From an uncultured delta proteobacterium (GTDB taxonomy: Bacteria > Myxococcota_A > Polyangia > Palsa-1104), in NCBI GenBank assembly GCA_963785725.1, contig CAWAWS010000007.1:640001-704000 (forward strand): DNA of 64,000 nt, written 5' to 3'. Positions 39,889 to 57,075 of this stretch are shown here, in pieces. A program made the position numbers and the translations under genes. Each line of letters starts with the position of its first letter. Within the stretch, counting starts at the first letter, position 1. The notes below the pieces were generated by a model. The model was not told the origin of the DNA. It ran no database searches and saw only the letters and a program-made list of their open reading frames with translations.

Positions 39889-40414
39889 TCAGTCGCAGCT
39901 GTCCGTCGGCGCGCACACCGCGTCCGCGGTGCAACAGCGATAGCCGTCGCGACAGCCCGTCGCCGCGCCCGGCGTGCACTTGGCCATGCACAGGTTGAAG
40001 GTGCCGCCTTCGCGCGCGCACATGCTGTCGGTCGGACAGGCCGTGTTCGTGCAGTCGCGCGTGCAGTGGCCGCCGGGAAACTGCACCTTCGTCTTGCCGG
40101 CGCCGACCTGATCGACGCACACCAGCCCGTCGCCGCCGCACTCCGCCGACGTCTTGCACGCGGCGCCGACCAGCGACGCCGGCGCGAGCGGCGCCATGTC
40201 CATCGCCACCATCGGCGGCGGCGGCGGCGGCGGCGCGCCCATCTTGACCGCCAAGTCGTCGACGGAGGCCGCCAGAATCGACGTCGACGCCCGGCGCCGG
40301 CCGGCCCGCCGCGCTACCCGACAGCGCGAGGTCGGGGCCGCCGCTACCGCCTGCCGACGCCACCTGAAACTGGCAGCCCGCCAAGCTCAGCATTAGCCAC
40401 AAGACCGACCGCAT
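39889..40414 (-). pseudogene. Cys-rich lipoprotein split by frameshift(s) near 40260-40310
   Basis: Lipobox 'SLAGC' in one frame; 'MDMAP..VGAACKTSAECGG..FPGGHCTRDC' in another. Confidence 0.55.
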
Positions 40415-40598
40415 GCGCGCTTACAGTGCAATGACGAGACCATCCGTTGCCGTCGTCATTCCAAACGCTTACGCAGCTGGAAGCGGGAGTCGGACGGCGC
40501 GACTGGGAGGCCTACACCTCGCCCCTGCGGCGTCATCCGCGCAGGGCGGCTCGGCGCCGGATCCGAAACAGCGCGCGGCGATCGACGAGCGTGGCGGC

Positions 40599-41273
40599 TT
40601 AGAACGAGCCGAGATTGTGGAAATTCGACGGGACGCCGGACGAGCTCTTCGTGCCCAACAGAACGCCGGCCGTGACCGCGCCACCGACGACGAGCACGCC
40701 GCCGATGATGCCGAGCGCGATCCAGCGTCCTTTGTGCGACGGCTTCTCCGGCGGCGGCGGCGTCACGACGAGGACGGGCGCGACGACCGGCGGCGGCGGC
40801 GCCACGGCCGGCGGCGGCGGCGCAACGACGGCGACCGGCGGCGGCGCCGTCGGCGCGAGCAGCGGCGGCGCCCGCGTGCCCGGCGCCGGCGGCACATCGC
40901 TCGACGGCGACGTCGCGTGCGCGCGCGACAACACGGCGATCCAGCGCTGCACGTAAACTCGCTCGCGCGCGTTCGGCTCCGCCGCCAGATAACGACGGTA
41001 AAACTCCAGCGCCTTGCCGCGCTGACCCGACAGCCGCGCCATCTGCGCGATGTCGTACAAGAACAGCGGCAGCGGCACACAGGCGTAGCCGGCTTCGAAA
41101 TCAGCCATCGCTTGCAGGTAGTTGCCGAGCTTGTGGTGCGCCTGGCCGAGCTCGAACTGCGCTTTGGCCACGCGCTCACCGCCGCAGCCGGGATCGGCCG
41201 CTTCCACGTTCGCCGCCATTCCCAGGAGCACAACGAGCACGAGCACGAGCAAACGCACGGGGCGATGAATCAT
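40599..41273 (-). CDS. myxobacterial TPR protein with Pro-rich linker and C-terminal TM
   Basis: 'AKAQFELGQAHHKLGNYLQAMADFEAGY..P.P.FLYDIAQ..R..G....AL.FYRRYL'. Confidence 0.75.
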   Translation of the reverse strand: MIHRPVRLLVLVLVVLLGMAANVEAADPGCGGERVAKAQFELGQAHHKLGNYLQAMADFEAGYACVPLPLFLYDIAQMARLSGQRGKALEFYRRYLAAEPNARERVYVQRWIAVLSRAHATSPSSDVPPAPGTRAPPLLAPTAPPPVAVVAPPPPAVAPPPPVVAPVLVVTPPPPEKPSHKGRWIALGIIGGVLVVGGAVTAGVLLGTKSSSGVPSNFHNLGSF

Positions 41274-41358
41274 CCGCGCGTGATTATGCGGGATCGATGG
41301 CGGCGGGCGCAAACGCCGTCGCTCGTCGAGCGTGGCTGCGTGCTATAAATAGGTCGTG

Positions 41359-42549
41359 ATGGGTTCGTCTGCTGCACTGCGCGCGTGCGCCTGTTTTGCG
41401 GCCGTGCTCGCGGGCTGCGGCGGCTCGTCGGCGACGCTGCTCGTCGAAGTGGTCGATACCAAGGCCGGCGCCAGCTTCGACAGCCTCGACGTGCACGTCT
41501 ACGATCCGCATGGCGTCGTCGCCTCCACGCACGTCGCCAAAGTGATCCTGCCGGGCGCGCTCGTGGCCAAGCATCTGGCGGACAAGGCGCAGGTCGTGCG
41601 CGTCGTCGTCGCCGGCAACGGCGCGATGCCGGCGCTGGGCGCGGCGGAGACGATGATGGTCGCCGGTGGGCAGGCGACGGCTCAGGTCGATCTCGCGAGC
41701 AGCTTGCAAGACAGCGACGGCGACGGCGTTCCCGACGCCTACGACGACTGTCCCAACGTGCCCGATCCCGATCAGCACAGCACCAACGGCGGCGCGCCCG
41801 GCGACGCGTGCGGCGGCGGCGGCGACATGGCGGTCGGCCTCGATCTCGCGAGCGGCGGCATGGCCGGCGGCGGCGGTGGCGGTGTGGCCGGCGGCGGCGG
41901 CGGCGGCACGACGGCGATCCTCGACATGAGCATGGCGCCGCCCGCCGACATGGCCGGCGTGCTCCTCTTCGACGACTTCACCAGCGACACGCTCGATCCC
42001 AACTTGTGGGTCACGAACGTCGGCGGCGGCGGCAAGGTCACCGTCGCGGGCGGCCTCGTCACCATCAACGCCGGCACCGCGGCCTCGGCCTTCGCCGAGC
42101 TGGTGTCGAAGACGTCGTTCCCCGTCGGTACGACGTTCACGGCGCGGGTCAGCCTCGCCGTCGGCCAGACCTACGACGAAAAGGGCGTCGGCTATGCCAA
42201 TGCGCGGCTGTCGGACGGCTGCGGCACCGGCGAGACCGAAGCGGCGATGATCCGCGGACAGAGCAACATCCTGTTGATCGAGCCCAAGACCAACAATATC
42301 TCGCAATGCGGCGCGTTGAACGCCGAGCAGAACCCGTATCCGGCCGGCTATCGGACGTTCAAGATCGTGCGGTTGAGCTCGAACGAGATCGACTTTTACG
42401 ATGGTACGGCCGCGCAAACGGACACGTTCGCGGTGCCGGGCGGGCTCTTGCCGGCGCGCATCGGCACGTTCACGAGCACGGCCAATCCGGCCGATCTCAC
42501 CGATCCGGTCACGATCATCGTCGACTGGGTGCTGGTCACGCAGAACTGA
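41359..42549 (+). CDS. lipoprotein with thrombospondin type-3 repeat and lectin-like C-terminal domain
   Basis: Lipobox 'VLAGC'; 'DSDGDGVPDAYDDCPNVPDPDQ....GDAC'; 'FDDFTSDTLD..LW'. Confidence 0.7.
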   Translation: MGSSAALRACACFAAVLAGCGGSSATLLVEVVDTKAGASFDSLDVHVYDPHGVVASTHVAKVILPGALVAKHLADKAQVVRVVVAGNGAMPALGAAETMMVAGGQATAQVDLASSLQDSDGDGVPDAYDDCPNVPDPDQHSTNGGAPGDACGGGGDMAVGLDLASGGMAGGGGGGVAGGGGGGTTAILDMSMAPPADMAGVLLFDDFTSDTLDPNLWVTNVGGGGKVTVAGGLVTINAGTAASAFAELVSKTSFPVGTTFTARVSLAVGQTYDEKGVGYANARLSDGCGTGETEAAMIRGQSNILLIEPKTNNISQCGALNAEQNPYPAGYRTFKIVRLSSNEIDFYDGTAAQTDTFAVPGGLLPARIGTFTSTANPADLTDPVTIIVDWVLVTQN

Positions 42550-42601
42550 AGCGCGGCTGCGTTCGGGAGTGGTAGGCTCCTCGCCGAAGGGATTGAGACC
42601 C

Positions 42602-42826
42602 ATGAACGCGAGCTGCTCCACCTGCGCGACGCTGGCCGGCAAAGACCGCTGCCCATTCCACACTCAAGGCGGCCGCAAGCAGCTGTCGACCGTGCCGCCG
42701 CGCGGTGTGGCCGATGCCTGCCCGCAGTGCGGCAACGCCGACGTCGACGTGCTCGACGCCTTCTTCGACACCGAGAACCGCGCCTGGCATCCGCCCTGCG
42801 CCGTCGTCGCGTTGCGCAGCCTCTGA
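42602..42826 (+). CDS. small Cys-rich putative zinc-binding protein
   Basis: 'CSTC', 'CPFH', 'CPQC', 'WHPPC'. Confidence 0.5.
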   Translation: MNASCSTCATLAGKDRCPFHTQGGRKQLSTVPPRGVADACPQCGNADVDVLDAFFDTENRAWHPPCAVVALRSL

Positions 42827-43019
42827 GAAGTCGTTAGCCGCGGCGAGCGCGCGCGCCGTCGCACGTGCACGCCGCGGATGTGGCTGGTCGGCGCTCCGTC
42901 AGGCGCGCCGCGTATGGATGAGGCGCGCCGCGTATGACCGCCGCGCCCGACGCGAACTAGCGCAGTCACGGCGCATTATTCACATTGCCGTTTCGCCGCC
43001 GGGTACCGAAATCCTAGCT

Positions 43020-44504
43020 ATGAGAATTTCCAGACGACGGTTCTTGCGCACGCTCGGCACGGGCGTCGCTGTGGCGTCGGCCGGTTGCGCCGCCAGCGGC
43101 TCGAGCGGCGCGCCCACCACCGACAGCACCGACTCGGCTTCGACGGATGACGTGACCGACAAGCTGCGGGCACCGGCGGCGCGCTGCCGGCAGCCACCGG
43201 CGCGGCTGACCGGCTGTATCGTCCGCCCCGGCGACCCCGACTACGACGCCGCCCGCAGCGACTACAACGGCCGCATCTCGATCGACCCGCGCCTCATCGT
43301 GTTCGCCTGCACCGTCGACGACGTGAGCAACGCCGTGCGCTGGGCGCGCGAGCATGACGTGCCGCTGCGGGCGCGCTCCGGTCGTCACAGCTACGAGGGC
43401 TACTCGCTCGTGCAAGACGGCTTGGTCCTCGACGTCAGCCGCCTCAACGGCATCCAGCACCACGCCGGATCGGGCGTCGCGCGCATCGGCGCCGGCTGCA
43501 CCGTCGCCGACGTCTACGAAGAGCTGTCGCCCCAGGGCGTCATGGTCCCGCTCGGCTCCTGCAACTCGCTCGGCCTCGCCGGGATGACGCTCGGCGGTGG
43601 CGTCGGCCTGTCGGGCCGGCAATACGGCCTCACCTGCGACGTCGTGCGCGCCATCGACCTCGTCACCGCCGAGGGCCAGGTCGTGCGCGCCACCGCCGCG
43701 CTCAACCCCGATCTCTTCTGGGCGCTGCGCGGCGGCGGCGGCGGCAATCTCGGCATCGTCACCGGCTTCGAGATGACCACGCATCCCGCGCCCGACGTGT
43801 CGACCTACTCGGTGAGCTGGCCGATCGACGACTTCGCGGCGGTCATGAGCTTCTGGCAGGGCTGGGCGCCTTACACCGATCCGCGGCTGTTCACCATCAT
43901 CAGCGTCAGCGCTCAGTCGGTCTCCTCGGTGGGGCAGCTCAACGGCCCCGCCAGCGAGCTGCAGAACCTGCTCTCGCCGCTCTTGGCCGTCGGCTCGCCC
44001 ACCAATCTGCAGGTGCAGTCGCTCAGCTTCCTCGACGCCGCGCGCTCGTTCGGCGACGACGACGCCGCCGCGCGACCGAAGTTCAAGAACTCGTCGGCCT
44101 ACGTCGTCACGCCGCTGTCGGACGCGGCGCTGGCGGTGATCGTGAACCAGGTGACCCACGCGCCCGGGCCCAGCAACACGATTCAATTCGATTCGTTCGG
44201 CGGCGCCATCTCCAGCGTCGCCAGCCACGCCACCGCCTTTTTTCATCGGCAGGCGATCTGCGACCTGCAGATCGAGTCCTTCTGGCAGAACGACAGCGAC
44301 GAGGCCGGCAATCGCGCGTGGGTGCACCAGACGCGTCAGGCGTTGGCGCCGTACACGAGCGGGGCGTACGTGAACTATATCGACGCCGACATCGTCAACT
44401 TCGCGACCGAGTATTACGGCGGCAATTTGTCGCGGCTTTCACACGTCAAGCACGCGTGGGATCCGACCGGGTTCTTCAGCTTCCCGCAGGCGATTCCCGG
44501 CTGA
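43020..44504 (+). CDS. Tat-exported FAD-binding oxidoreductase (berberine bridge enzyme-like)
   Basis: 'SRRRFLR' Tat signal; 'RSGRHSYEGYS', 'GLAGMTLGGG.G', 'NPDLFWALRGGGGGN.GIVT', 'YVNY.D', 'K..WDP...F'. Confidence 0.88.
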   Translation: MRISRRRFLRTLGTGVAVASAGCAASGSSGAPTTDSTDSASTDDVTDKLRAPAARCRQPPARLTGCIVRPGDPDYDAARSDYNGRISIDPRLIVFACTVDDVSNAVRWAREHDVPLRARSGRHSYEGYSLVQDGLVLDVSRLNGIQHHAGSGVARIGAGCTVADVYEELSPQGVMVPLGSCNSLGLAGMTLGGGVGLSGRQYGLTCDVVRAIDLVTAEGQVVRATAALNPDLFWALRGGGGGNLGIVTGFEMTTHPAPDVSTYSVSWPIDDFAAVMSFWQGWAPYTDPRLFTIISVSAQSVSSVGQLNGPASELQNLLSPLLAVGSPTNLQVQSLSFLDAARSFGDDDAAARPKFKNSSAYVVTPLSDAALAVIVNQVTHAPGPSNTIQFDSFGGAISSVASHATAFFHRQAICDLQIESFWQNDSDEAGNRAWVHQTRQALAPYTSGAYVNYIDADIVNFATEYYGGNLSRLSHVKHAWDPTGFFSFPQAIPG

Positions 44505-44632
44505 CCGCAGTCGCGCGAGCGCATCCGTCGAACGAAGGAAGCCGAGCGCCGCCGGTGCGCACGCGCCGGATATGGCGTGGACGCCGACGGCGACGCAGAG
44601 CGCGAACCGGCGACGGCAACAGCGAGGCGGTC

Positions 44633-44647
44633 TTACATGGTGGCGAT
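44633..44647 (-). repeat. distal att-like copy of the icd 3' end (reads I-A-T-M-stop)
   Basis: TTACATGGTGGCGAT versus icd CTACATATTGGCGAT; the following ~35 bp resemble the sequence after the 46876 core. Confidence 0.7.
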
Positions 44648-44771
44648 GCCTGGCGCGCCTTCGCGGCTCGCCGCGTTGGCAAGTGGCGACGGCCCTCCGA
44701 CGGCAGCTTCAACGATCAGCAGTGTCGGTTGCCGTAAAGCCGCGACGCCGCGGATTGGATATGGGGTCGAT

Positions 44772-45278
44772 ATGGCGCTGCTGGCGCTGGTGCTCGTCGC
44801 CGCCGGCTGCACGTCACCCGCGGCTGCGAGGGTCGCGGCGAGCTCGGAGGTCGCGCCCACCGACAACCCGGTCATCGCCTGGCGCGTGACGGCACCTGCG
44901 AGCGCAGCGGGCGAATCGTTCATCGGCGCCGACGCACAGCTGTGGTCGGTGTCGCCCGAGTGGCCGGGGCCGTACGTCGACACGTTTGGGCTGACCTTCG
45001 AGCTCGACGACGCGTGGGGCTTTCGGTTCGACACGCCGCGCGCCGGGCTCGTCGTGGCCGCGACGGTGGACATCGCCGGCGCGCTGCTCTTTGCGACGAT
45101 GGGCCGCGGCGCCGAGCTGCGCACGTGCGTCGCGTGGACTGGAACCTATGGCGTCGTGTCGGACGTGCCTGCGTGGTCGGTGCAGATCGACGCGCGCTCG
45201 ACGGACTGTCCGGGCGTCACGATCAGCGGATCGTGGTGGGGATGGCTGGCCGACGCGGATGGCAACGCGGCGCAATGA
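44772..45278 (+). CDS. uncharacterised lipoprotein, paralogue of 47042..47596
   Basis: Lipobox 'VAAGC'; C-terminal 'SDVPAWSV.I.A..C.GV.ISGSWWG'. Confidence 0.65.
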   Translation: MALLALVLVAAGCTSPAAARVAASSEVAPTDNPVIAWRVTAPASAAGESFIGADAQLWSVSPEWPGPYVDTFGLTFELDDAWGFRFDTPRAGLVVAATVDIAGALLFATMGRGAELRTCVAWTGTYGVVSDVPAWSVQIDARSTDCPGVTISGSWWGWLADADGNAAQ

Positions 45279-45423
45279 GCCCGATGGCGCGACGGCTCGT
45301 ATGACCTTCACGGCCGGGGCTTGCGCGCGCGATTTTGGCGGTCGTGCAAGCCTCGCGAAGCCGGCGCGCGAGCTCATGTCGTGGCTGACGGACCGGAATT
45401 CGGACGCGTTTCAGCGTGATATA

Positions 45424-45855
45424 ATGGCCTCCCCGATGATCCATATCAACGACCGGTACTGGCCCATCATCGTGTTCCGCTTTTCCGGGCAAATCACGAT
45501 GGAGGAGCTGGAGCGATACCTGACGTGGCAGGACGCGATGGTGGCGCGCCGCCTGCCCAACGCGTCGCTGGTGGTGACCGAGAACCTGCGCATGTGGGAG
45601 ATGCCTTTGCTGCGGCGGCAGGCTGCGTGGCTCAAGGAGCACGAGCCGCTCCTGCGCAAATACAGCCTCGGCGTGGCGCTGGTGATCACCTCGCCGGTGG
45701 TGCGCGGCATGCTGAAGGCGCTCATGTGGATGCAGCCGATGCCGCAGCCGCACATCGTGTGCGGCACGACGGAGGAGGCGCTGCGGTGGCTGTGCGATCG
45801 CTTCCGCAGCGAGCACATCGAGCTGCCGGCGAGCTTGCCGTCGACGCTGAGCTGA
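45424..45855 (+). CDS. STAS/SEC14-like hypothetical protein (myxobacterial type)
   Basis: 'WPIIVFRF.G..T', 'R..QAAWL', 'GVALVITSPVVRG.L.AL.W', 'EEALRW'. Confidence 0.6.
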   Translation: MASPMIHINDRYWPIIVFRFSGQITMEELERYLTWQDAMVARRLPNASLVVTENLRMWEMPLLRRQAAWLKEHEPLLRKYSLGVALVITSPVVRGMLKALMWMQPMPQPHIVCGTTEEALRWLCDRFRSEHIELPASLPSTLS

Positions 45856-46253
45856 GCCGCGCACCTCGCCTCAGACCAGCTGGCGTCGGAGCTGGCCCGA
45901 GTGTCGTTCTACGTGACCGACGCCAGCGTGGCGAGCCTCGACGAAGAACGCCGACGCCGCGCTGCCCACGTGCGCCGTGGCGATGACGGCGCCGATCGCA
46001 TTCACGGGCGCGAACGTCTTCGGCGTCGGCCCGATCACGGGGTGCAGCGACACACGATGGGACGGCACCGAGGCTCCGTTTCAGCCAGGGTGACGTCATC
46101 GGCGCGATTGGGAATCTGACGTCAACGCGCACGGCGACGATGGCAGCGCGGGTGCGGGGCGATGGTGGCGGCACGTGTACACGGCAACAGTTAGCGCGCG
46201 CCCGCCGGGCCCAGATCACAGTGCGCGCCCGCGCCTCCTGCTACATTCGTTCA

Positions 46254-46679
46254 ATGGACGGACCTCCTGTCTTGTTCTGGGCTGTCCTCGCCGCGATCGG
46301 CGCCTTCAACGCCGTGGTCGTCGCCGTTAAGCTCAACCGAACGTTTGTCTGCCCACAGTGCGGGGAAGTGACCAAGACGTGGCGGCTGCGCGCGTACTAC
46401 CCCGAAAATTCGCCGTTCAGTCGCCGAGCCAACCCTTTCGTCCGCTGCCTGCACTGCAAGAAGGTGATTGACCTGCGCGAGGCACCAAGCCCATCGAGGC
46501 CGCCGCCACGGCTCCTGGCCGCGCATGGTCCGCAAGTCGTCGGCGCGCCGTGCGCGGTGTGCAAGGATCGCATCATTCTCGATACCGAGGCGGCGCCGTG
46601 CGCAATCTGCGGCCGGCCGGTCCATCTCGCTTGTCTGCCACACGCGCACGACGAGGACGCCAGCCCTTATCGCGGCTAA
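46254..46679 (+). CDS. membrane-anchored double zinc-finger protein (zinc ribbon + RING/C1-like)
   Basis: N-terminal TM; 'CPQC..CLHC'; 'CAVC.x12.CAIC...VHLAC'. Confidence 0.6.
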   Translation: MDGPPVLFWAVLAAIGAFNAVVVAVKLNRTFVCPQCGEVTKTWRLRAYYPENSPFSRRANPFVRCLHCKKVIDLREAPSPSRPPPRLLAAHGPQVVGAPCAVCKDRIILDTEAAPCAICGRPVHLACLPHAHDEDASPYRG

Positions 46680-46804
46680 CCAGGCAGGCGCGACGTGCCT
46701 GACTGGATATGTCAGCGAGCGCGACGTGCGATGACGGGGTTGATGTCGTGGCGAGATGGTGGAGACGAGCAGCTGGCGAGCGGCTCGATCCTGGAGTAGT
46801 CGCA

Positions 46805-46876
46805 GCCGGCTACGCGAGAACGGTAACCGTGTGAAAAAGCGAGGAAGACGGACGATGTCGTCTACATATTGGCGAT
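46805..46876. repeat. att junction: ~72-bp imperfect direct repeat of 55809-55881 with a 19-bp exact core TCGTCTACATATTGGCGAT (46858-46876)
   Basis: Direct alignment with the sequence spanning the icd stop codon. Confidence 0.9.
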
Positions 46877-46984
46877 ACCGTGGGCGTCTCCGCGGGTTGT
46901 CGCGCTGGCAACCGACGGCACTTCACCGACGAGAACAGAGCGCAGGCATCGCGCGCGCATCGACTCGCGGAGTATGCCGACGCC

Positions 46985-47013
46985 TCGAAAATGGATACCG
47001 GGCGGATACGGCC
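46985..47013. repeat. putative integrase arm-type sites
   Basis: TCGAAAATGGATAC-N5-GGATACGGCC, matching 55783-55811; GGATAC copies 11 bp apart. Confidence 0.7.
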
Positions 47014-47041
47014 TTCGTAGCCTCGATGCGACGGTGCGCTC

Positions 47042-47596
47042 GTGAGCCCTGTCTGCCCGCACTGCAACACGATCATCGTGTGCCGTGTCTGCGCGGCGCG
47101 CGGGCGCCACGTCAGGCTGAATGCACTGCCGGCGCTGCTGGTGGCCATGCTGGCGTTCGGCGGCGCCGGCTGCACCGCTCCCGCGGATCAGGTGCTCGCG
47201 CCCGCTGCCGTGAGTGCCGCGCCGCTCCCCACGTGCGCGATGGCCATGACCGAGCCGATGGTGCTCAACGGAACGCAGTTCTACGACTCGGGCAGCTTCG
47301 AAGACTGCGGCTACTCCTGGAACGATGCCGGCATCGTCGAGGTAGGCTTCTCGGCCGCGCCCAACGGGTTGATGGTGCTCGTCGACATCTCGCGCGCGGT
47401 GGCCACGCCGGGCAACACCTACGACATCGGCTCGGGCGCCGTCTCGGTGGCGACGGGATTGTATGCGCCTTGCCACGGCGTGGTGACGTGGGAGAGCGAC
47501 GTGCCCAACTGGGCGGTGTCAGCGAGCGCCACTTGCGACGACGGCGTCGACGTCGTCGCGAGGTGGTGGGGGCATCGGTACGTCGGGAACGAGTAG
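47042..47596 (+). CDS. uncharacterised lipoprotein, paralogue of 44772..45278 (start uncertain)
   Basis: Lipobox 'GGAGC'; C-terminal 'SDVPNWAVSASATCDDGVDVVARWWG'; possible N-terminal CPHC/CRVC extension. Confidence 0.65.
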   Translation: MSPVCPHCNTIIVCRVCAARGRHVRLNALPALLVAMLAFGGAGCTAPADQVLAPAAVSAAPLPTCAMAMTEPMVLNGTQFYDSGSFEDCGYSWNDAGIVEVGFSAAPNGLMVLVDISRAVATPGNTYDIGSGAVSVATGLYAPCHGVVTWESDVPNWAVSASATCDDGVDVVARWWGHRYVGNE

Positions 47597-47855
47597 CAGC
47601 ACGGCGAATGACGGGGAGCGTGACCGTCGAGCCTGGGCGGGCGTGGCGGCTCGAACTGGACATGGCGTGCGTCGAGAATTCGGTGATCAGGCTGTAGCGT
47701 CGGAGATCGACAGCAGCAGCGTCTCAGCGGCGTGCCCGGTTGCGGCTCGCGGTCACAGCCGAGGTGCGACAAAACGCCGCAGATGGCGACTGTTCTGATG
47801 CGCTAAATTGGAGAAACGTGCGTGCCGTGCGACGGTGGTGGCGGATGGAGTGCGA

Positions 47856-48725
47856 GTGAAGAGAAATCAGATTCCTTCACCTAGGCGTCGATCGTTTTTG
47901 ACGTCAGAGCGAATGGGTGTCCTGGTTGCTGCGGTTGGCCCCACCGTGGCGGCCGGGGCCGCCGTCTTTAAAGCAATAGCCGACGGCAAGAGTTCCTTGG
48001 CTGCCGTGCAGGTTGACGCCTCGAAGACCGCGGCAGAGGCCTCCGCGACAGCGTCAGCGAAGATTACCGACGCCTACTCTTGGATCCTTTGGCCGGCCCT
48101 AGGGGCACTGATCTGGACGATCGTCGTCGCGCTCTACAAGTTCGTGGTTGCCACTTCCAAAGACCGCGAGCACGAAGAGCTGCAGAGCCCGAAGCCGTTA
48201 CTAGGTCCTTTGCACGTTCTTCACGAGCAGATAAGACTTCGAAAGAACCTGCAGGATAGTGCTGATGACAGGCGCAAATTCCGCGCGACGCTCTACCGGA
48301 TCGACGGCGAATATCACGAGCAATGCGTGTCGTACGTTGGGTACTCCTCGCACGACCCCAAGCGAGTTCCCGGGCCGAAAAGGCGCTGGCCGAACGCATG
48401 CGGGTTAGTGGGCAAGGCCATACGGCTTGAGGAAATCGGTCCCCTGCATGCTGTTGTGGGACAGACGATCGATACTGCCGACCAGTTCGTACAGCACCTG
48501 ATGGACAGCTACGGCTATACAAGGGAACAGGCGGAATCCTGCGAGAAAATGCGCATGTCATCCCTGGTCATTCCGATCGTCGACGCATCGGGACCGACAG
48601 GTAAGCCCATCGGAGTCATGTACTGCGATTCCTCGGAGCGCAATTTCTTCGACAAGGACACCCAGGAGCTGGCACTGGCATCTGCCATGGGCATGGCCAA
48701 GTTGATCAATGTCCTGTATAGCTAA
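47856..48725 (+). CDS. 2TM + GAF-like domain protein
   Basis: Two hydrophobic segments; GAF-like 'CGLVGKAI' and 'SSLVIPIVD....PIGVMYCDS.ERNFFD'; atypical low-GC codon usage; GTG after GGAG. Confidence 0.7.
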   Translation: MKRNQIPSPRRRSFLTSERMGVLVAAVGPTVAAGAAVFKAIADGKSSLAAVQVDASKTAAEASATASAKITDAYSWILWPALGALIWTIVVALYKFVVATSKDREHEELQSPKPLLGPLHVLHEQIRLRKNLQDSADDRRKFRATLYRIDGEYHEQCVSYVGYSSHDPKRVPGPKRRWPNACGLVGKAIRLEEIGPLHAVVGQTIDTADQFVQHLMDSYGYTREQAESCEKMRMSSLVIPIVDASGPTGKPIGVMYCDSSERNFFDKDTQELALASAMGMAKLINVLYS

Positions 48726-48740
48726 CAAAGGGAGCCCATC

Positions 48741-48932
48741 GTGAAAAAGTTGATCGTTGGGAAGGAAGTGGTTTCCGAGCCGGGCGCGGGAATCAAGATC
48801 ACGGCGCTCAAGCTCTCGGCCTTCGCACAGGAAGGGCTGAGCACGCATGGCGTCCGCATCCGTGTTGGCGATGAAGACTCCGCACCGATCGTCCTGCAGC
48901 AGCCGCAGCCCTCTGTAGCCGTCGAAGAATAG
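48741..48932 (+). CDS. 63-aa hypothetical protein co-oriented with the GAF gene
   Basis: Strong AGGGAG RBS; starts 15 bp after the GAF stop. Confidence 0.55.
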   Translation: MKKLIVGKEVVSEPGAGIKITALKLSAFAQEGLSTHGVRIRVGDEDSAPIVLQQPQPSVAVEE

Positions 48933-49008
48933 CTCCTCCGAAGCAGATCCTCACCGGGGCCACTTCGTGTAGTCCACCGGGTGCCAGCAGGTCGCGCGGC
49001 CGGTTCCA

Positions 49009-49278
49009 CTAGTACTCGGCCCATCGCCAAAACCACAGCGGGCGTCGTTCCTGTGTCGCCTCGTCGCCGCCCAGGTCGTGCACCTTGCCGAGAGCGATCG
49101 TGCGCGCCTTGCCTTCGAACGGTGGCCAGTCACGCTCGGTGCTCACCTGGCGCGCGACAGAGGTCGCCCAGTATTCTCCGCGACAGCCGGCCGTGGACAT
49201 GAGCGCGCCGGCCGACGCCTGGCCGCCGCACGCCTCGCAGGAGATCTCAGCGTCGTTACAGGTCGCGCACGTCGCCAT
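49009..49278 (-). CDS. small CxxC-CxxC protein (possibly 3'-disrupted)
   Basis: 'MATCATCNDAEISCEAC'; GGAG upstream. Confidence 0.4.
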   Translation of the reverse strand: MATCATCNDAEISCEACGGQASAGALMSTAGCRGEYWATSVARQVSTERDWPPFEGKARTIALGKVHDLGGDEATQERRPLWFWRWAEY

Positions 49279-49300
49279 CGACTGATCGTACACTCCGACC

Positions 49301-49429
49301 ATGGCGAAGCAACCGACCGACCTGATGCCGTTCGCGCCCGACGAGATCGAGCTCTTGCGCGCCACGTGCGGCGAACTGCCGGCGCAAGACGAGCGGCGCC
49401 GACTGCTCGCAACGTTCGACCACCCATGA
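49301..49429 (+). CDS. 42-aa ORF translationally coupled to the HEPN gene
   Basis: MAKQPTDLMPFAPDEIELLRATCGELPAQDERRRLLATFDHP*; ATGA overlap at 49426-49429. Confidence 0.45.
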   Translation: MAKQPTDLMPFAPDEIELLRATCGELPAQDERRRLLATFDHP

Positions 49430-50235
49430 TCACCTATGAGCAAGCAAGACCACTAGTATTCGCGGTCCTTAGGGAGCATCCACAGGGACAGCATGCGAAC
49501 GTCGTTGAGAACGTGTTGCATCGAGTTCACCAGTCGTCACCGGTGCAGCGGCTGGAAAGGCGACCTGCGAGCGTCAACGCGGGCGAGGAGCAGCAGGTAG
49601 AAGAAATCGTCCGTCAGTTGATGTGGAGAATGTTGATAGACGGCGTAATTGTCTTCGGCCTCGATGCGGTTAACAACGCGTGGCCGTTCTATAGCGTTAC
49701 CGAATATGGCAAGAAGGTCGTCGCGGGGGAGACGGCCCAACCCTATGATCCGGAAGGCTTTGTTGCCTATTTCGTCCAGCAATGTCCAGGAGCGGACGAT
49801 GTCATCCGCGAATACTTCATCGAAGCCGTGACATGCTTCAACAGCGGGTGTCATCGTGCATCGGTCATCATGCTGGGAGCGTCGTCGGAGCGATTAATTC
49901 AGAATTTGAAAGAAGCGACGGCGTCTAGCATGCCAGAAGCTCAGCGTGAAAAGTTTCGGAGGGACTGCGGCTCGAAGATAAGCAAGGTGTTTCAGACGAC
50001 CAAGGGCCGCTTGGACTACAGCGTGAGCCAAGGTTTGCTCTCCGCCCCTCACGATGAGACGGTGTCATCCACACTTCCGGCGGTTTTCGACGTGCTGCGA
50101 CGGTCGCGGAACGATGCTGGTCATCCAACAACGCCAGCTCCCATCGATCGAGATACGGCATTCATCAACCTGCGGGTGTTTGTTGAGTACGCTCGAAGGG
50201 TATTGCTCCTCGACGCGAGCATTCGCGCGGTCTGA
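49426..50235 (+). CDS. wHTH + HEPN-like protein (Abi/Ymh/DUF4145-like; candidate RNase effector)
   Basis: 'LMWRMLIDGVI...FYSVTEYG' wHTH-like; 'EAVTCFNSG.HRASVIMLG..SE' and RxxxxH motif 'RNDAGH'. Confidence 0.7.
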   Translation: MITYEQARPLVFAVLREHPQGQHANVVENVLHRVHQSSPVQRLERRPASVNAGEEQQVEEIVRQLMWRMLIDGVIVFGLDAVNNAWPFYSVTEYGKKVVAGETAQPYDPEGFVAYFVQQCPGADDVIREYFIEAVTCFNSGCHRASVIMLGASSERLIQNLKEATASSMPEAQREKFRRDCGSKISKVFQTTKGRLDYSVSQGLLSAPHDETVSSTLPAVFDVLRRSRNDAGHPTTPAPIDRDTAFINLRVFVEYARRVLLLDASIRAV

Positions 50236-50384
50236 GTCGCAAACTTTCGGTCCGATAAGCGGCTGCTACTCGTCGAGCATGGACGAGAGCTGCGGGAAGT
50301 TGCGGGCAACGATCGGCAGATGAACCGTCGCCTGCGACATCGTGTCGCATGGGCGCCGACGTCGCCAGATGGCATTCTTGAGCG

Positions 50385-50579
50385 ATGACTCGTCAAGAGT
50401 GGTTCCTGCAATACCAGATGGAGATGAGCATGCGGATGGCCGCGCAGAATGGCCGGCTCCTTCCCGAGCAGAGCGCCTTGGTTGCGAAGGCCGCGGAGTT
50501 CGTGTCATCGGGCGATTCCAACCCGCCCAAGAGCTTCGACGCATGGACCGCTGACTTTGACCGTTGGCGGAAGCGCTGA
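50385..50579 (+). CDS. small hypothetical protein
   Basis: 64-aa ORF with protein-like composition inside the island. Confidence 0.35.
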   Translation: MTRQEWFLQYQMEMSMRMAAQNGRLLPEQSALVAKAAEFVSSGDSNPPKSFDAWTADFDRWRKR

Positions 50580-50661
50580 TGCTGGACGCGCGCGCAGCGG
50601 CAACGTGTCGCAGGCGAAGTGCGTGGTCCGGTGCGATGATTCGACACGGGAGGTGGCGAGC

Positions 50662-50958
50662 ATGGCCGAGCTTGGTATTCCAGGGGTGGCAACGCCGACG
50701 GGACAATTTGAGGAGATTTGGGTGGCAATAGCTGTCGGCGCTTGCTGGGGCGCCTATGCGGCCATGGTCGCGGCAGTCATCCAATCCAAGGCGAGAATGT
50801 CGCCGGACGTGCGCCGCGGAAAATTCTCGATCATCGCCTCGCAGATCGGCGGGCGTTTGCCGGATGGTCGCGTGAAGCAGGAATTCAAGAAACAGATAGA
50901 CGCTGCGCTCGCGGATATCGAAAAGTTTACAGACCGCGACGTCACCGACGAGGCCTAA
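50662..50958 (+). CDS. small single-TM hypothetical protein
   Basis: GGGAGG RBS; hydrophobic 'IWVAIAVGACWGAYAAMVAAVI'. Confidence 0.45.
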   Translation: MAELGIPGVATPTGQFEEIWVAIAVGACWGAYAAMVAAVIQSKARMSPDVRRGKFSIIASQIGGRLPDGRVKQEFKKQIDAALADIEKFTDRDVTDEA

Positions 50959-50965
50959 TTATCGC

Positions 50966-51841
50966 TCACACCGTTCGCACGACCCAAGGCCCGACGCTCG
51001 GCACCGTCTCGATCGCGACGAGCCCCGACACCGACGCCAACGTCGACACCGACCCGCCATAGAACGTCAACCCGCCGCCGGTGAACCACGCCTCACCATT
51101 AGCGGCGACGGCGAGCGCGTACGTGTTGGGATCGGGCGTCGTCGTCGGCGTCGAGTATCCGACGAGGCCCGCGACCGCGCGCGCCGTCGACGGGTACACG
51201 CTCCCGCCGGAGTTGATTGTCGTACCGTCGGTCGTAATGACGCCGGCCGTCCACCCCTGGCCGATGCCACTGTTGAACAGCACGGTCGCGCCGGGCACGG
51301 CGTCGGCGAGCGTCGCGAGCGTCAACGTCATCGAGCCGAGCGGCACTGATACTGGCGGCCCGAAGTAGCCGTCGACGTACGAGTAGACGTTTGCGCCTGC
51401 GGGGAGGCCAGTGGCGGTGTAGGGTGCGCGCGGCGCCAAGGGCGGGATCGTGAACGTGGCGCCGAGCGGAAAAGTCGTGTTCTGAAACGACAGCGTCGTC
51501 GGCGTGCCCGTAATCGCCAACGTCCACACCGGGAGATTCGGCGAGAACAATGACGACGTGAATGGCCCTTGGACTGAGCCGCCGTCGACGGTGTAGCTCG
51601 CCGCCATCATACCGATAGGCCCGCCAGTGGCGATGGTGACGACAATCGTGTGATTGCACGTCGCCGGCACGAGCTGGCCTGTCCCCGGCGCGCCGTAGAA
51701 CGAGAACATGCCGCCGCTATTCGCCGCCGATTGCCAGCCCGGGAACTGCGCGTTGAGCTGCGCCAGCAGCGCCGAGGGCAGCAGCACACAGGGAGTCGTC
51801 GACGCGAGCCCGGTTCCGCCGGGAACGATGCGGTAGCTCAC
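50966..51841 (-). CDS. Gly/Thr-rich beta protein, possible phage structural/tail protein (may be 5'-truncated)
   Basis: Composition and 'VVTIATGG.IG....SYTVDGG' resemble virion beta-sandwich proteins. Confidence 0.45.
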   Translation of the reverse strand: MSYRIVPGGTGLASTTPCVLLPSALLAQLNAQFPGWQSAANSGGMFSFYGAPGTGQLVPATCNHTIVVTIATGGPIGMMAASYTVDGGSVQGPFTSSLFSPNLPVWTLAITGTPTTLSFQNTTFPLGATFTIPPLAPRAPYTATGLPAGANVYSYVDGYFGPPVSVPLGSMTLTLATLADAVPGATVLFNSGIGQGWTAGVITTDGTTINSGGSVYPSTARAVAGLVGYSTPTTTPDPNTYALAVAANGEAWFTGGGLTFYGGSVSTLASVSGLVAIETVPSVGPWVVRTV

Positions 51842-52501
51842 GTTTACCCCGACGTAGGCGGCCCGCCGGTCAACGTCGATCGGTGGCCTGACACGCAGGC
51901 CAAGAACCGCGCTTTTGCAATCTTCGAGCGATTGAGCGTGGCGACCTTCGACGGGACCGAAGCAGAGCGCGACGGGGTGCCATACCTGCGATTCACGCCC
52001 GAGGCGCAAGAGCTGTTTAACGTCTGGTACGGCGACCTAAGAAATCAGCTCTACCGGGGCAACGACGAATCGGTCATCACCGCGCACCTGTCCAAGTTTA
52101 GCAGCCTCATGCCGTCGCTGGCGCTGATCTTCCATCTAGCCGACGGCGCGTGGGCTGACGCGGTCGGTGGCGCTGTCAGCGGTGGCGCCGCTGCGCTCGC
52201 GGTCCGCTGGTGCGCGCTACTCGAGGCGCACGCACGGCGCGTCTACCAAGTCGTTACAGAGCGAACACAAGGCGCCGCGCGCCAACTCGCGGCGAAGATT
52301 CGCGCAGGCAAGCTGCTCACCGGCTTCACATTGCGCGAGATCCAGCGCAAGGACTGTTCGGGGCTCATCGAACACGACGACGTCGATCGCGCGCTCGGGT
52401 TGCTGGAGGAATACGGTTGGCTGAGGAGCTATAGCGTCGCAACGGGCGGTCGCCCAACGACGCGTTACTCAATCAACCCAGCATTGCCGGTGCAACTGTG
52501 A
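51842..52501 (+). pseudogene. C-terminal fragment of a DUF3987/YfjI primase-associated helicase-like protein
   Basis: 'VYPD....VDRWPD..AK.RA..IF', 'LRFTPEAQELF..W', 'AHLSKF.SL.PSLALIFHL', 'LEAHARRVY', 'GGRPT..Y.INP'; N-terminal half absent. Confidence 0.7.
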
Positions 52502-52533
52502 AACGAGTTGTGCTCCATCTCGCCGGCGACGCA

Positions 52534-53130
52534 CTACAAGCAACCAGGCTGATCGGGGCGAGGAATCGTGACGAGCGGGATCTTACCGACGATCTTGGAT
52601 ACGTCATTGAACAGGTGGTGCAGGCCGAAGACGGCAAGGACGACGACGGCCTTTGCATCCGATTCGGTTCGCTCGAGCGTTCCGAAAGTGCTCGCGCCGC
52701 CGACGTCCTTCATGACGAGGTCGAGGTACTGGTACAGCTTCTCAATTCGAGCAAACGGTTTGTCGGTAGTGACGTCGATGTTGACACGATGGGCGAGTTG
52801 ATTCCGAAGATCACGCAATCCGTCAAGCGCGTCCGCTTCGAGCGTTCGGATGATGCCAACAAGGCTCGCAAGCTGAATGCGCGCCGAGAATGTGCCGACC
52901 GGAGCGTTTGCGTTGCCGTCGAGACCCAAGAATTTCTCAATTGCTTTGGGCTCTCCGACGAGGCGTTGCGCAAGCATTTCTGCCAGCGCTGCATCGAGAC
53001 CAGCGCCGCCAATGATGACGGCTTCGCGCACGCTGAGTCGTTGCATCTCGTTGATAGATTCCATTGCGGACAACCCATCGGCCCCGGCGAAAAAGGGCAT
53101 GACATCCGTCGACCATTTTTCCATTCGCAT
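52534..53130 (-). CDS. MtlR/MltR-like HEPN-fold protein
   Basis: 'REAVIIGGA.LD..L..ML', 'PVGTFSARI.LA..VGII', 'LRDLRNQLAH'; AAGGAGG RBS. Confidence 0.7.
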   Translation of the reverse strand: MRMEKWSTDVMPFFAGADGLSAMESINEMQRLSVREAVIIGGAGLDAALAEMLAQRLVGEPKAIEKFLGLDGNANAPVGTFSARIQLASLVGIIRTLEADALDGLRDLRNQLAHRVNIDVTTDKPFARIEKLYQYLDLVMKDVGGASTFGTLERTESDAKAVVVLAVFGLHHLFNDVSKIVGKIPLVTIPRPDQPGCL

Positions 53131-53291
53131 CGCTGCCTCCTTCGAAATCTTCGCACGTATCCGAATAGGTCAGCGACGGTGAATGCAAATTATACTTGCA
53201 TTGAAAAACATTTATTGCTAGGTGTATTGGTAAGATGACTGCCAGAAATGTTTCCGGGACGGCGGCAGCGACGGTAAAGTTAGGACCGTCG

Positions 53292-53504
53292 ATGCCTCGT
53301 AAACCTAAGCGCGTCAAAGCTGGCGCCACAGGGACCGTGCACCTGTCCTTCATCGTTGAAGCTGACCTCGTGCGCGTCGTCGACGAAGAGTCAGAGCGCA
53401 TGAAGGCCGAGGACGACTACGGCCGTACCGTGAGCCGCACTGATACCGTGCGGTCGCTGATCAAAGACGGCCTAAAGTACCGCGCCGAAAAGCGCGGCAA
53501 GTAG
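53292..53504 (+). CDS. ribbon-helix-helix-like DNA-binding protein
   Basis: 'VHLSFIVEADLVRVVD...VSRTDTVRSLIKDGL'. Confidence 0.6.
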   Translation: MPRKPKRVKAGATGTVHLSFIVEADLVRVVDEESERMKAEDDYGRTVSRTDTVRSLIKDGLKYRAEKRGK

Positions 53505-53510
53505 TTTCTC

Positions 53511-53620
53511 GCCGTCGGCCTCCCGACGGCTATAGCACCTCGCGACTCACTTCAAGTCGCGAAAATAACTGCGCCCGTCGATCCCCTTTCAGCTTGGCGG
53601 CGGAAGGGACGGACGGGCGC
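53511..53620 (+). promoter_or_regulatory. three consecutive stem-loops (structured leader/terminator region)
   Basis: GCCGTCGG/CCGACGGC, TCGCGACT/AGTCGCGA and GCGCCCGTC/GACGGGCGC. Confidence 0.55.
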
Positions 53621-53634
53621 GAAGGAGCAAGCCC

Positions 53635-53790
53635 ATGCTATGCACAGGCTACAGCTACGTCAATGTTTCAGAGGTCCCTCCCGTCGACGAATTTGAAGAC
53701 GAGCCCACGCGCCCCGATCTGCTCGCGGCGCTGCCGATGGCGGCGATCGTATTCGGCGCGGCGAACGACGACGCGGTCGTGCGCTCGTGA
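53635..53790 (+). CDS. 51-aa hypothetical protein
   Basis: AAGGAG RBS; MLCTGYSYVNVSEVPPVDEFEDEPTRPDLLAALPMAAIVFGAANDDAVVRS*. Confidence 0.45.
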   Translation: MLCTGYSYVNVSEVPPVDEFEDEPTRPDLLAALPMAAIVFGAANDDAVVRS

Positions 53791-53801
53791 AGGTGGCTCA
53801 A

Positions 53802-54080
53802 ATGAGTCGCCCTTGCGACATGACGGCGCTATCGCTCCACGTCGAGCGGGCCCACGCGATCGTCGACCTACTCTACGAGAGTCTCGTCGATTCGTCTGCC
53901 GTCGGACTGGAGACGACGCGATCCCTCGACGCGATCGGCGCGCTGCTTGGCTATGCAGAAGACGAGCTGGCGCGACACGCGCAGGACGAACTCGCGAAGG
54001 ACGCGGCAGCGGTGGAGGCGGAACAAGCGCGGGTTGAGGCCCACATCGCAGCAGAGCGCAAGCGCCAGGTGCGCCGATGA
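53802..54080 (+). CDS. helical hypothetical protein
   Basis: AAGGTGG upstream; ATGA overlap with the next gene. Confidence 0.5.
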   Translation: MSRPCDMTALSLHVERAHAIVDLLYESLVDSSAVGLETTRSLDAIGALLGYAEDELARHAQDELAKDAAAVEAEQARVEAHIAAERKRQVRR

Positions 54081-54499
54081 GCGCACTCGAGATCATGCTT
54101 GTGGCCATGCCCGACATGGCTCGTCTCGTGACGAAAAACACCTGGGAACGGCTCAGCTATGTCTTTCAGGTCGACGGACCGTCCGATCTGCACCGCAAGA
54201 TCAAAGAGCATCAGCCGGACATTGTCGTGCTCGACTGGCGGATCAGCGGCAATACGTGGCGCGTCATCGACGAGGTACCGACCATTGTCTCGAAGACGGC
54301 GACGCATCCGCTCGTGATTTTTGTCGGAGGCAGCAGCAACGAAAGCGTTGACCGTGAAGCGGCGCGCCGCTGCTGCTATGACGTCGTCGGACTTACCGAT
54401 AATTCCAATTGGGCGTCTGAAGTCGCCCAAGCCATCGGGTGCGCAGCTCAGAACCGTTGGCGGGCGTCCGACGGGACGCACGAATGGACCTTGCACTAG
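54077..54499 (+). CDS. receiver-like domain protein
   Basis: 'HQPDIVVLDW', 'PLVIFV', 'REAARRCCYDVV'. Confidence 0.55.
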   Translation: MSALEIMLVAMPDMARLVTKNTWERLSYVFQVDGPSDLHRKIKEHQPDIVVLDWRISGNTWRVIDEVPTIVSKTATHPLVIFVGGSSNESVDREAARRCCYDVVGLTDNSNWASEVAQAIGCAAQNRWRASDGTHEWTLH

Positions 54500-54561
54500 T
54501 CACCGAGCGCGCCGCACCAGCTCGGGCGGCGCCGCTTTTACCTTTTGCAGGGAGCCGATTC

Positions 54562-55782
54562 ATGGGCGATGAGCCGAAACCGAAACGCGGCGATCGTGGC
54601 ATCGTCCGCCGCCGCGGCCACTTTTATCTGCGCTACGTCGACGTCGACGGCGTGCGCCGCACGAAGCTCGCTCGCGGTGTCACCACAATCGTCGACGCGC
54701 GCGCCGTGCTCGCCAAGATCGAGGAGCGCGTCACCAAGGGGCTCGTCGGCATCGAGGAGCGCACCGAGGAGACGCGGCAGCGCGCGACGCTGACGATCCG
54801 CGAGCTCTTCGACAAGTTCATGACCGACTACTCGCCGCCGCGCGTAAAGAACCTCGACGAGTATCGCAACCAGACGCGCAGCGTCTTCAGCACGCGCGTC
54901 CTGCCAACGCTCGGCTCGCGGCCGGCGGTGAGCCTGACCAACCGCGACGTCGAGCGGCTGCGAGACGGCCTCATCGCCGACACCTACGCCGCCGGCTCGG
55001 TCGCCTGGACAATGGCGCGGCTATCGAAGCTGTACGCCTGGGGCAACGCGCAGAAGCTGATCGACTGCCGCAGCCCCGTGACTGGCGTCGAGTATCCGGT
55101 CGCCCTGAGCCTGCTCGACTACCTGCGCCGCGAGGAGGTGACGGCTCTGCTCGGCTGGCTCGACACCAACGAAGCCAAGCTCGAGGCGCGCACGCTGCAG
55201 CAGGTGCGCCCGATGATCTGGACCGGCCTCTACACCGGCCTGCGAAAAGGCGAGCTGCTCGGCTTGAGGTGGATCGACGTCCACCTCGACGCGATGCGCA
55301 TCGACGTGAACCGCTCCTACCTCGGCCTACCGAAGTCGGGCAAGCCGCGCTACCTGCCGCTGCACCCTGACCTGGCGCCCATCCTGCGCGCGTGGCGTGA
55401 GCGCCAGACGCAGCTGCAGGCCGCAGAGGACAGCGGGCTTGTGTTCCCCGCCCACTACCCCGGCGAGGGCTGGAAGATGGGCGAGAGGCGCCACACGTTC
55501 GGCCTGCGGCAGTGGCTCAAGTGGGCCGGCTGCCACGTACCCAAGCGGCGGCCGTGGCACCTCCTGCGCCACACGTTCGCGAGCCACTTCATGATGAGCG
55601 GCGGCAACGTGCTGACGCTGCAAAAGCTGCTGGGACACAGCCGGCTCGAGACGACGCTGATCTACGCCCACCTCGCGCCCGACCACCTGGCGAGCGAAGT
55701 GGCGCGGCTGACCTTCGCGGCGAAGGCTGCTACCGTCGACAGCATAGAGGAGCAGCGGCGCCTGCGCGCCGCCGGTGGATAG
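54562..55782 (+). CDS. tyrosine recombinase/phage integrase with N-terminal arm-binding region
   Basis: 'TGLRKGELLGLRW.DV', 'PKSGK.R', 'WHLLRHTFASH', 'LQKLLGHS...TT.IYAH'; catalytic R-K-H-R-H-Y set intact. Confidence 0.95.
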   Translation: MGDEPKPKRGDRGIVRRRGHFYLRYVDVDGVRRTKLARGVTTIVDARAVLAKIEERVTKGLVGIEERTEETRQRATLTIRELFDKFMTDYSPPRVKNLDEYRNQTRSVFSTRVLPTLGSRPAVSLTNRDVERLRDGLIADTYAAGSVAWTMARLSKLYAWGNAQKLIDCRSPVTGVEYPVALSLLDYLRREEVTALLGWLDTNEAKLEARTLQQVRPMIWTGLYTGLRKGELLGLRWIDVHLDAMRIDVNRSYLGLPKSGKPRYLPLHPDLAPILRAWRERQTQLQAAEDSGLVFPAHYPGEGWKMGERRHTFGLRQWLKWAGCHVPKRRPWHLLRHTFASHFMMSGGNVLTLQKLLGHSRLETTLIYAHLAPDHLASEVARLTFAAKAATVDSIEEQRRLRAAGG

Positions 55783-55811
55783 TCGAAAATGGATACAGGA
55801 TGGATACGGCC
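55783..55811. repeat. putative integrase arm-type sites
   Basis: TCGAAAATGGATAC-N5-GGATACGGCC, matching 46985-47013. Confidence 0.7.
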
Positions 55812-55862
55812 GGCTACGCTAGAACAGTAACCGTATGAAAGGAGCGAGGAAAATGGACGATT

Positions 55863-55881
55863 TCGTCTACATATTGGCGAT
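55863..55881. repeat. att core overlapping the icd stop codon
   Basis: TCGTCTACATATTGGCGAT, identical to 46858-46876. Confidence 0.9.
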
Positions 55882-57075
55882 GATGAGGTCGCCGAACTCG
55901 CTGCACTTCACTTCGCGCGCGCCTTCCATCAAGCGCGCGAAGTCGTAGGTCACCGTCTTGTTGCCGATGCTCGTCTCGAGGCCCTTCAAGATCAGCGTCG
56001 CCGCCTCGTTCCAGCCGAGATGCTCGAGCATCATGACGCCCGAGAGCACGACCGAGCCCGGGTTGACCTTGTCCTGGTCGGCGTACTTCGGCGCCGTGCC
56101 GTGCGTGGCCTCGAACACGGCGTGGCCCGTCTTGTAGTTGATGTTGCCGCCGGGCGCGATGCCGATGCCGCCGACCTGCGCCGCCAGCGCGTCGGACAAG
56201 TAGTCGCCGTTCAAGTTCAGCGTGGCGATGACGTCGAAGTCTTCCGGCCGCGTCAACACCTGCTGCAGCGTGATGTCGGCGATGGCGTCCTTGATGACGA
56301 TGCCTTGCGGCAGCTTGACCCACGGGCCGCCGTCGAATTCGACGCCGCCGAACTCCCTCTTCGCCAGCTCGAAGCCCTAGTCGCGGAAGGCGCCCTCGGT
56401 GAACTTCATGATGTTGCCCTTGTGAACCAAGGTGACGCTCTTGCGCTTGTGGCGAATGGCGAACTCGATGGCGGCGCGAATCAAGCGCTCCGAGCCTTCG
56501 CGCGAGACCGGCTTGATGCCGATGCCCGACGTGCCCGGGAAGCGGATCTTCTTGACGCCCATCTCGTTCTCGAGGAACGCGATGACCTTCTTGGCCTCGG
56601 GCGACTCGGCGGCCCACTCGATGCCGGCGTAGATGTCCTCGGTGTTCTCGCGGAAGATGACCATGTCGACCTTCTCGGGACGCTTGACCGGCGACGGTAC
56701 GCCGGTGAAGTAGCGGACCGGGCGCAGACAGGTGTAGAGGTCGAGCATCTGGCGCAAGGCGACGTTCAACGACCGGATGCCGCCACCGACGGGCGTCGTC
56801 AACGGTCCCTTGATGCCGACCTTGTACTTCTTGAAGGCTTCGACGGTGGCGTCGGGCAGCCAGTTGTTGGTCTGCTTGAACGCCTTCTCGCCGGCGAGCA
56901 CTTCGAGCCACTGAATCTTGCGCTCGCCTTTGTAGGCCTTCTCGACGGCGGCATCGAAGACGCGCACGCTGGCGCGCCAGATGTCGCGGCCGGTGCCGTC
57001 ACCCTCGATGAACGGGATGGTGGGACGAGACGGGGTCTTCACGGTGCCGTCGGCGGCAACCTCGATCGTATCCAT
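55867..57075 (-). pseudogene. icd: NADP-dependent isocitrate dehydrogenase interrupted by one in-frame TAG at 56377-56379 (nonsense mutation or base-call error)
   Basis: '[12 protein letters not shown]', '[21 protein letters not shown]', '[18 protein letters not shown]', '[17 protein letters not shown]', '[12 protein letters not shown]'. Confidence 0.92.

Follow-up and report, generated by a model that had tools for sequence, protein, structure and literature searches.

Three direct copies of the icd terminus mark a likely tandem of related integrated islands in an uncultured myxobacterial genome

Why do the last codons of icd, the gene for NADP-dependent isocitrate dehydrogenase (Icd), occur three times in direct orientation on one bacterial contig? 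The locus lies in a stretch of 64,000 nucleotides (from here on the window; positions 640,001 to 704,000 of contig CAWAWS010000007.1, assembly GCA_963785725.1) from an uncultured delta proteobacterium of the Polyangia (Palsa-1104), whose genome comprises 8.9 Mb at 67.9% guanine plus cytosine (GC). Based on repeats, element arms and comparison with congeners, it is highly probable that a tandem of related islands arose in the last four icd codons through repeated site-specific integration. The tandem is made up of an element with an intact tyrosine integrase (E1), a decayed remnant behind it (E2) and likely a third member further out. The features that carry this reading are the following (ORF, open reading frame).

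55867-57075, minus strand: icd, the target gene, ending in IIANM*
55863-55881, minus strand: icd-side attachment (att) site, a 19-bp identity block with the predicted 7-bp overlap at 55873-55879
46858-46876, minus strand: middle site, hybrid junction of E2 and E1, IANM*
44633-44647, minus strand: distal site, IATM*, probably a hybrid junction too
46877-55866, unstranded: element E1, 9.0 kb, 62.9% GC against 67.9% in the genome
54562-55782, plus strand: tyrosine integrase of E1 (longest ORF from 54439), convergent with icd and 84 bp from its stop
55783-55862, plus strand: E1 short arm; its doubled arm-type motif, GGATAC-N5-GGATAC (55791-55807), is 77 bp away from the predicted core
46877-47013, plus strand: E1 long arm; its doubled motif (46993-47009) is 130 bp away from the predicted core
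44648-46861, unstranded: remnant E2, 2.2 kb, without an integrase
46805-46857, plus strand: truncated E2 short arm, which stops at 46805, its arm doublet and the integrase gene missing
44648-44776, plus strand: E2 long arm; a degenerate doublet (44757-44773) lies 123 bp away from the core
44568-44632, plus strand: degenerate sequence resembling a short arm, to the left of the distal site, with a half-intact doublet at 44568-44584
40500-44567: a further 4 kb absent from the icd locus of congeners
39779-40445, minus strand: far flank of the empty locus, a host gene plus upstream sequence found directly after icd in congeners

All three copies of the icd tail lie on the minus strand, at 55867-55881 (IANM*, the end of icd itself), 46862-46876 (IANM*) and 44633-44647 (IATM*). 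The 19-bp repeat shared by 55863-55881 and 46858-46876 has just these two copies in the 8.9-Mb genome, and a looser stop-Met-x-Ala-Ile motif ([CT]TACATnnTGGCGAT) occurs exactly three times genome-wide, on one strand and always at these sites. Similarity continues into the flanks: the middle and icd-side sites share 73 bp at 89% identity (blastn E 2e-19 against the genome), and the right flanks of the middle and distal sites align over 72 bp at 72%, with similarity reaching about 135 bp (local score 54, 0/500 shuffles). The icd-tail repeats are real and far beyond chance. The sequence-only reading of this DNA had described the three direct copies, homology on both sides of the middle site and a hybrid junction there between two related elements; alignment bears out all of this, with element arms found on both sides of the middle site.

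The same reading had taken TGGCGAT as the recombinase overlap. This heptamer is indeed common to the sites, but on its own it is non-significant, with 15 copies per strand in the window, and dyad symmetry of the flanking sequence favors another choice. CGCCAAT, located between CAT and ATG, gives 15 of 27 flanking matches, compared with 9 for the next best placement and 5 for TGGCGAT. The overlap is thus more likely CGCCAAT, shifted by 2 bp, although this sequence-derived assignment should be seen as suggestive. Between the two outer sites the predicted overlaps are mismatched at 2 of 7 bases, and all four congeners carry AAG (Lys) within the predicted overlap. No integration host factor consensus was found near the sites.

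The E1 integrase matches PF00589 (E 5.5e-23) and phrog_1, contains a weak N-terminal SAM-like domain and retains all catalytic residues in alignment (R228, H333, R336, H359 and Y368). Doubled motifs of the general form GGATAY-N4-6-GATAYGG have three copies in the genome, one in each E1 arm and one in the E2 long arm, with centres at -77, +130 and +123 bp relative to the predicted core. They are predicted to be integrase arm-binding sites, because this role has been proposed for co-oriented doubled motifs at 81 and 132 bp in the phage-type attachment site (attP) of helper-embedded phage-inducible chromosomal islands (HE-PICI), as laid out in the attP section of PMC10111431. Doublets of similar kind with 11-bp spacing lie behind the integrase at 3 of the 48 closest homologous loci. 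Of 401 genomes in the class, only the present one shows the combination of arm and icd end, and the arm pattern gave 0 matches in viral contigs. A contig from run X2 matches 55696-55877 with 4 differences and so covers the integrase end and the short arm up to the core.

E2 still has both of its att ends, yet the E1 integrase is the single integrase match in the whole window. Behind the E2 long arm lie a gene related to the lipoprotein-like marker gene of E1, two further genes and two broken pieces of the marker gene.

44772-45278: lipoprotein-like paralogue, right after the long arm, 26% identical to the E1 marker gene
45424-45855: SpoIIAA-like gene
46254-46679: zinc-finger ORF
45955-46022 and 46690-46762: broken marker-gene paralogue pieces

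A member of the lipoprotein-like family thus directly follows the long arm in both E1 and E2. Divergence between the sites grows with distance from icd. To the left of the distal site the sequence is short-arm-like (44568-44632; score 29, reached in 2/500 shuffles), which makes a second hybrid junction probable there. Beyond it, 40500-44567 contains a TPR gene, a thrombospondin-repeat gene, a small ORF and an FAD/BBE oxidase at 69.6% GC; this region may be a still older remnant or possibly an ordinary insertion.

In three of four congeners the icd locus is empty, the icd stop lying about 100-150 bp from a homologue of window positions 39779-40414; in the fourth, two unrelated genes separate the icd stop from that far-flank homologue. 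Since icd directly adjoins this homologue in congeners, the array can be taken to span about 40.5-55.9 kb. The limits given earlier, 44568-55881, therefore fall 4 kb short of the extra DNA. Homology to the congener flank resumes at about 40445 and the left flank of the distal site is arm-like; the true host-side end of the array can no longer be recognised. The doubled arm motif, the arm-like distal flank, the DNA at 40.5-44.6 kb and an in-frame stop in icd are additions to the sequence-only reading, whose proposal of repeated site-specific integration at the icd 3' end is supported by repeats, arms and the empty congener locus. One congener (G003, locus L053) has a second CATGTAA about 30 bp past its icd stop, possibly by chance and possibly as a scar.

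How could such an array have formed? The integrase would bind the two doubled arm sites, which flank a 7-bp overlap in the icd codons I-A-N-M at distances of 77 and 130 bp, and the circular element would have recombined into these codons. The element brings its own last codons and stop, by which icd is restored and the site re-created. A newcomer could then enter the re-created site beside icd and displace older elements outward. Junctions between elements are, as a consequence, flanked by element arms, which holds for the middle site and is likely for the distal one. The older element has no integrase and no short-arm doublet and contains broken marker-gene copies, which suggests that deletions eroded it. 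Excision of E1 would be expected to yield a 9,005-bp circle and to leave the Icd protein unaltered, and the remnants would move only together with E1, if at all. Joint excision of E1 and E2 is doubtful, because the outer overlaps differ at 2 of 7 bases and recombination usually requires identical overlaps, a rule stated in the part of PMC10111431 dealing with crossover.

The consequences for Icd itself are small. Removing E1 in silico leaves IIANM* and removing E1 and E2 together leaves IIATM*. The C-terminus is restored and not meaningfully replaced, and excision alters at most one residue, so that the earlier statement that the elements had replaced the icd C-terminus went too far. With the protein unchanged or altered in one terminal residue, no regulatory effect on Icd is expected. 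Comparison with the congeners, all four of which end in IKNM*, places a Lys-to-Ala change inside the predicted overlap. This change may be a host allele, given that IANM-like Icd tails are present elsewhere in the order, or it may have been written by an element.

Several observations weigh against a tandem built by repeated integration. The signal for a third remnant is weak (2/500 shuffles), and the 40.5-44.6 kb region has host-like GC and host-type genes. No host-side right attachment site (attR) was found, and 38-44.5 kb holds no extra copy of an arm or of the icd tail. Profile scans of the ORFs recognised no excisionase, relaxase or capsid genes. The listed contigs of five runs, which come from other strains, contain neither an excised circle nor an empty site of the species itself, which is no proof that these are absent; empty loci were seen in congeners, and no conspecific empty allele was found. 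The X2 contig stops at 55877 without bridging into icd. These points can be set beside two other histories of the locus. E1 and E2 might have been joined elsewhere, with an 11.2-kb or larger unit entering icd in one step and carrying an internal att site. Transfer of whole tandems is described in PMC5704250, and the order of events is not given by sequence alone. Nevertheless, the E2 short arm still ends in an icd-tail copy that is identical to icd over 19 bp, the distal site and the marker gene beside it exist in another strain (the run X1 contig covers 44227-45281), and the mismatched outer overlaps argue against recent joint mobility, which makes single-step entry very unlikely in our view. 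Local duplication debris or an artefact of this long-read metagenome-assembled genome, which the sequence-only reading had named as a possible undoing of the repeats, would fit the other in-frame stops and single-base insertions in the assembly and the stop in icd. The copies are 72-89% alike rather than identical, and sites that differ in sequence cannot be one duplicated contig piece; arm motifs at fixed spacing and an integrase accompany them. Parts of the array moreover recur in independent samples, namely the integrase end with the short arm (X2), the distal site (X1) and the long arm with the marker gene (protein P0123), so that related elements must exist outside the present assembly. 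The artefact explanation is largely refuted and we give it almost no credence.

Accepting repeated integration at icd, is icd then the regular target of this integrase? The E1 integrase forms a clade with P0001 (78% identical) and P0002 (76%), with a Shimodaira-Hasegawa-like approximate likelihood ratio support of 100 in a quick tree whose 43 rows were selected among the top 30 proteins and 12 loci. An integrase match was found at 338 loci (redundant records included), 237 of them with at least 600 bp behind the gene, and the 48 closest are 35-49% identical; loci of the closest homologues are mostly recorded as Polyangia or Myxococcales, in keeping with the myxobacteria-like lineage named in the sequence-only reading. 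None of the 338, all at most 49% identical, lies at icd, and no second genome with the E1 integrase at icd was found, which also counts against the tandem. In line with this, the integrase is absent behind icd in 29 of 29 relatives (flanks of up to 1.5 kb, 0.9 kb in one). A tRNA gene lies near 6 of the 48 closest loci, and at a seventh a fragment of tRNA-Leu was spotted by eye, so target choice evidently varies within the wider clade. It could be that icd is a one-off or secondary site of a clade that normally uses another target, for instance a tRNA gene, and the AAG in the predicted overlap of all four congeners would agree with this; such a history would touch the family claim and not the tandem. 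However, the loci compared are only 35-49% identical at best, with E1, P0001 and P0002 forming a separate clade, and at least two diverged elements used one site, each bringing the icd stop within its own arm, as expected of a primary site. This argues for icd as the primary site of the E1 integrase subclade, and we regard a secondary site as unlikely, though the strongest of the competing accounts. The broader claim made earlier, a lineage-wide family of icd-targeting elements, is a case not made by these loci. A bolder view is that this clade of soil Polyangia evolved targeting of the last four icd codons independently of e14 and phage 21, tolerates overlap mismatches and rewrote the third-last Icd residue. 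We consider this improbable as a whole; if true, the third-last residue went from Lys, as in congeners, to Ala here, with the next position set to Asn or Thr by the last element, and icd would be a convergently chosen attachment gene across phyla, with an element-written tail. Scans of metagenome, genome and viral contigs for close integrases returned only relatives at most 48% identical, and a search of the 401 class genomes with P0001 gave nothing closer than 51% outside the present genome. Among the order-level relatives, one sister family (L035-L050, L136-L159) has a strong expansion of the wider integrase family, which reaches 19 copies in a genome and often lacks an obvious target gene behind it.

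The mechanism is known; what is new is the site, the lineage and an integrase unrelated to e14 IntE. E14 and phage 21 are both given at icd in the relevant section of PMC12540744, and E1 resembles them in the target gene, the tyrosine integrase, the replacement 3' end supplied by the element and the displaced tail on the far side. In contrast, e14 crosses over at icd codon 363, 165 bp before the gene end according to the e14 annotation, while the E1 site corresponds to E. coli codons 413-416, about 50 codons downstream. The E1 integrase has no significant similarity to e14 IntE (best E 0.28), and E1, unlike these phages, contains no phage genes. A phage search with the E1 integrase gave no close full-length match, the best among the matches listed being 24-26% identical. 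Membership in the e14/phage 21 group was considered and is ruled out for e14 by the unrelated integrase and the different crossover codon.

Tandem accretion involving cis-mobilizable elements (CIMEs) and chimeric attI sites is covered in one portion of PMC5704250, and PICI tandems at fis, with parts of 17+3 kb and 15+2 kb, in one portion of PMC10111431. The icd array is similar in having an intact element by the gene end, an integrase-less decayed remnant behind it, a hybrid internal att site and a comparable split (9+2.2 kb). It differs in that no conjugation, relaxase or PICI packaging genes were recognised, the outermost host-side att is lost and the host belongs to a different phylum. HE-PICI attP, as portrayed in that part of PMC10111431, shares the two co-oriented doubled motifs about 80 and 130 bp from the crossover; the motif sequence is another one, the target is chromosomal and not a prophage late gene, and the satellite gene set is missing. 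PMC12424338 places 43.4% of 1.76 million mapped islands within protein-coding genes and treats the resolution of tandem arrays as routine. Among the papers listed in the literature search, none deals with icd integration in myxobacteria, although an island database may already include this site. The locus shows icd being used as a target for a second time, apparently independently and at a great distance from enterobacteria, and it adds a precisely mapped attachment site with an intact integrase for an uncultured myxobacterial lineage, possibly of use as an integration tool.

The icd gene itself deserves a comment. Its product is of the E. coli type and aligns with E. coli Icd over its full length, with PF00180 and PRK07006/TIGR00183 matching on both halves of a frame that is interrupted once.

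56377-56379, minus strand: in-frame TAG in icd

The 33 other locus records all have Trp at this position. Derivation of the TAG from a Trp codon was dropped, as contigs of close strains (3 of 4 runs) carry a Tyr codon there, one base from TAG. When 58 genes (75.7 kb) were compared with those of a congener, 6 stop candidates emerged, of which the icd TAG and one other are apparent true mid-gene stops, along with several single-base insertions in the assembly. The TAG is likely a base-call or assembly error, and possibly a real nonsense allele. Elsewhere in this genome, conserved genes at G000:C37 (about 64945-65863), G000:C6 (about 283-290 kb) and G000:C14 (about 211 kb) contain single-base insertions or an in-frame stop relative to the congener, which suggests residual assembly errors.

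The remaining E1 cargo consists of small or weakly classified genes.

54077-54499, plus strand: receiver-domain-like ORF upstream of the integrase (weak PF00072, E 0.024)
53292-53504 and 53787-54080, plus strand: two small ORFs without a family match
52534-53130, minus strand: DUF4145/HEPN-like ORF (weak Pfam matches; phrog_22031, E 6e-8)
51650-52501, plus strand: C-terminal DUF3987 fragment (PF13148, E 2e-18, covering only profile positions 241-363 of 364)
50966-52009, minus strand: 347-aa ORF of no known family, overlapping the start of the DUF3987 frame on the opposite strand
49426-50235, plus strand: 269-aa ORF with a weak DUF4145 match, from a family that is widespread but unnamed
47808-48725, plus strand: membrane-anchored GAF-domain protein (PF01590, E 3e-5)
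47042-47596, plus strand: lipoprotein-like marker gene, directly behind the E1 long arm

The ORF at 53292-53504 resembles ribbon-helix-helix proteins and may be a small DNA-binding regulator. The DUF3987 fragment would represent a decayed gene of replication-module type; the 347-aa ORF (50966-52009) is placed as if it substituted for the 5' part of this truncated gene. No virion, packaging or primase genes were found, and the only PHROGs matches among the 16 cargo proteins are the integrase, a family with no assigned function and a weak DNA-binding match. Likewise, no defence systems were recognised among these 16 proteins, two weak PADLOC matches being short, and a test for integrative and conjugative or integrative and mobilizable elements, which covered genes only, revealed no relaxase or mating-pair family among the ORFs scanned. 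An Atlas search gave no named family for the lipoprotein-like marker gene, which has only two database homologues, P0122 (83% identical) and P0123 (68%). P0123, from another assembly, has an N-terminal extension in front of the marker gene that corresponds to the translated long arm, doublet included. Two cargo genes have homologues of 74-76% identity in congeners, at other loci, and a cysteine-rich small ORF of E1 (48951-49278) has a 72% copy in the same genome at G000:C20:297783-298096.

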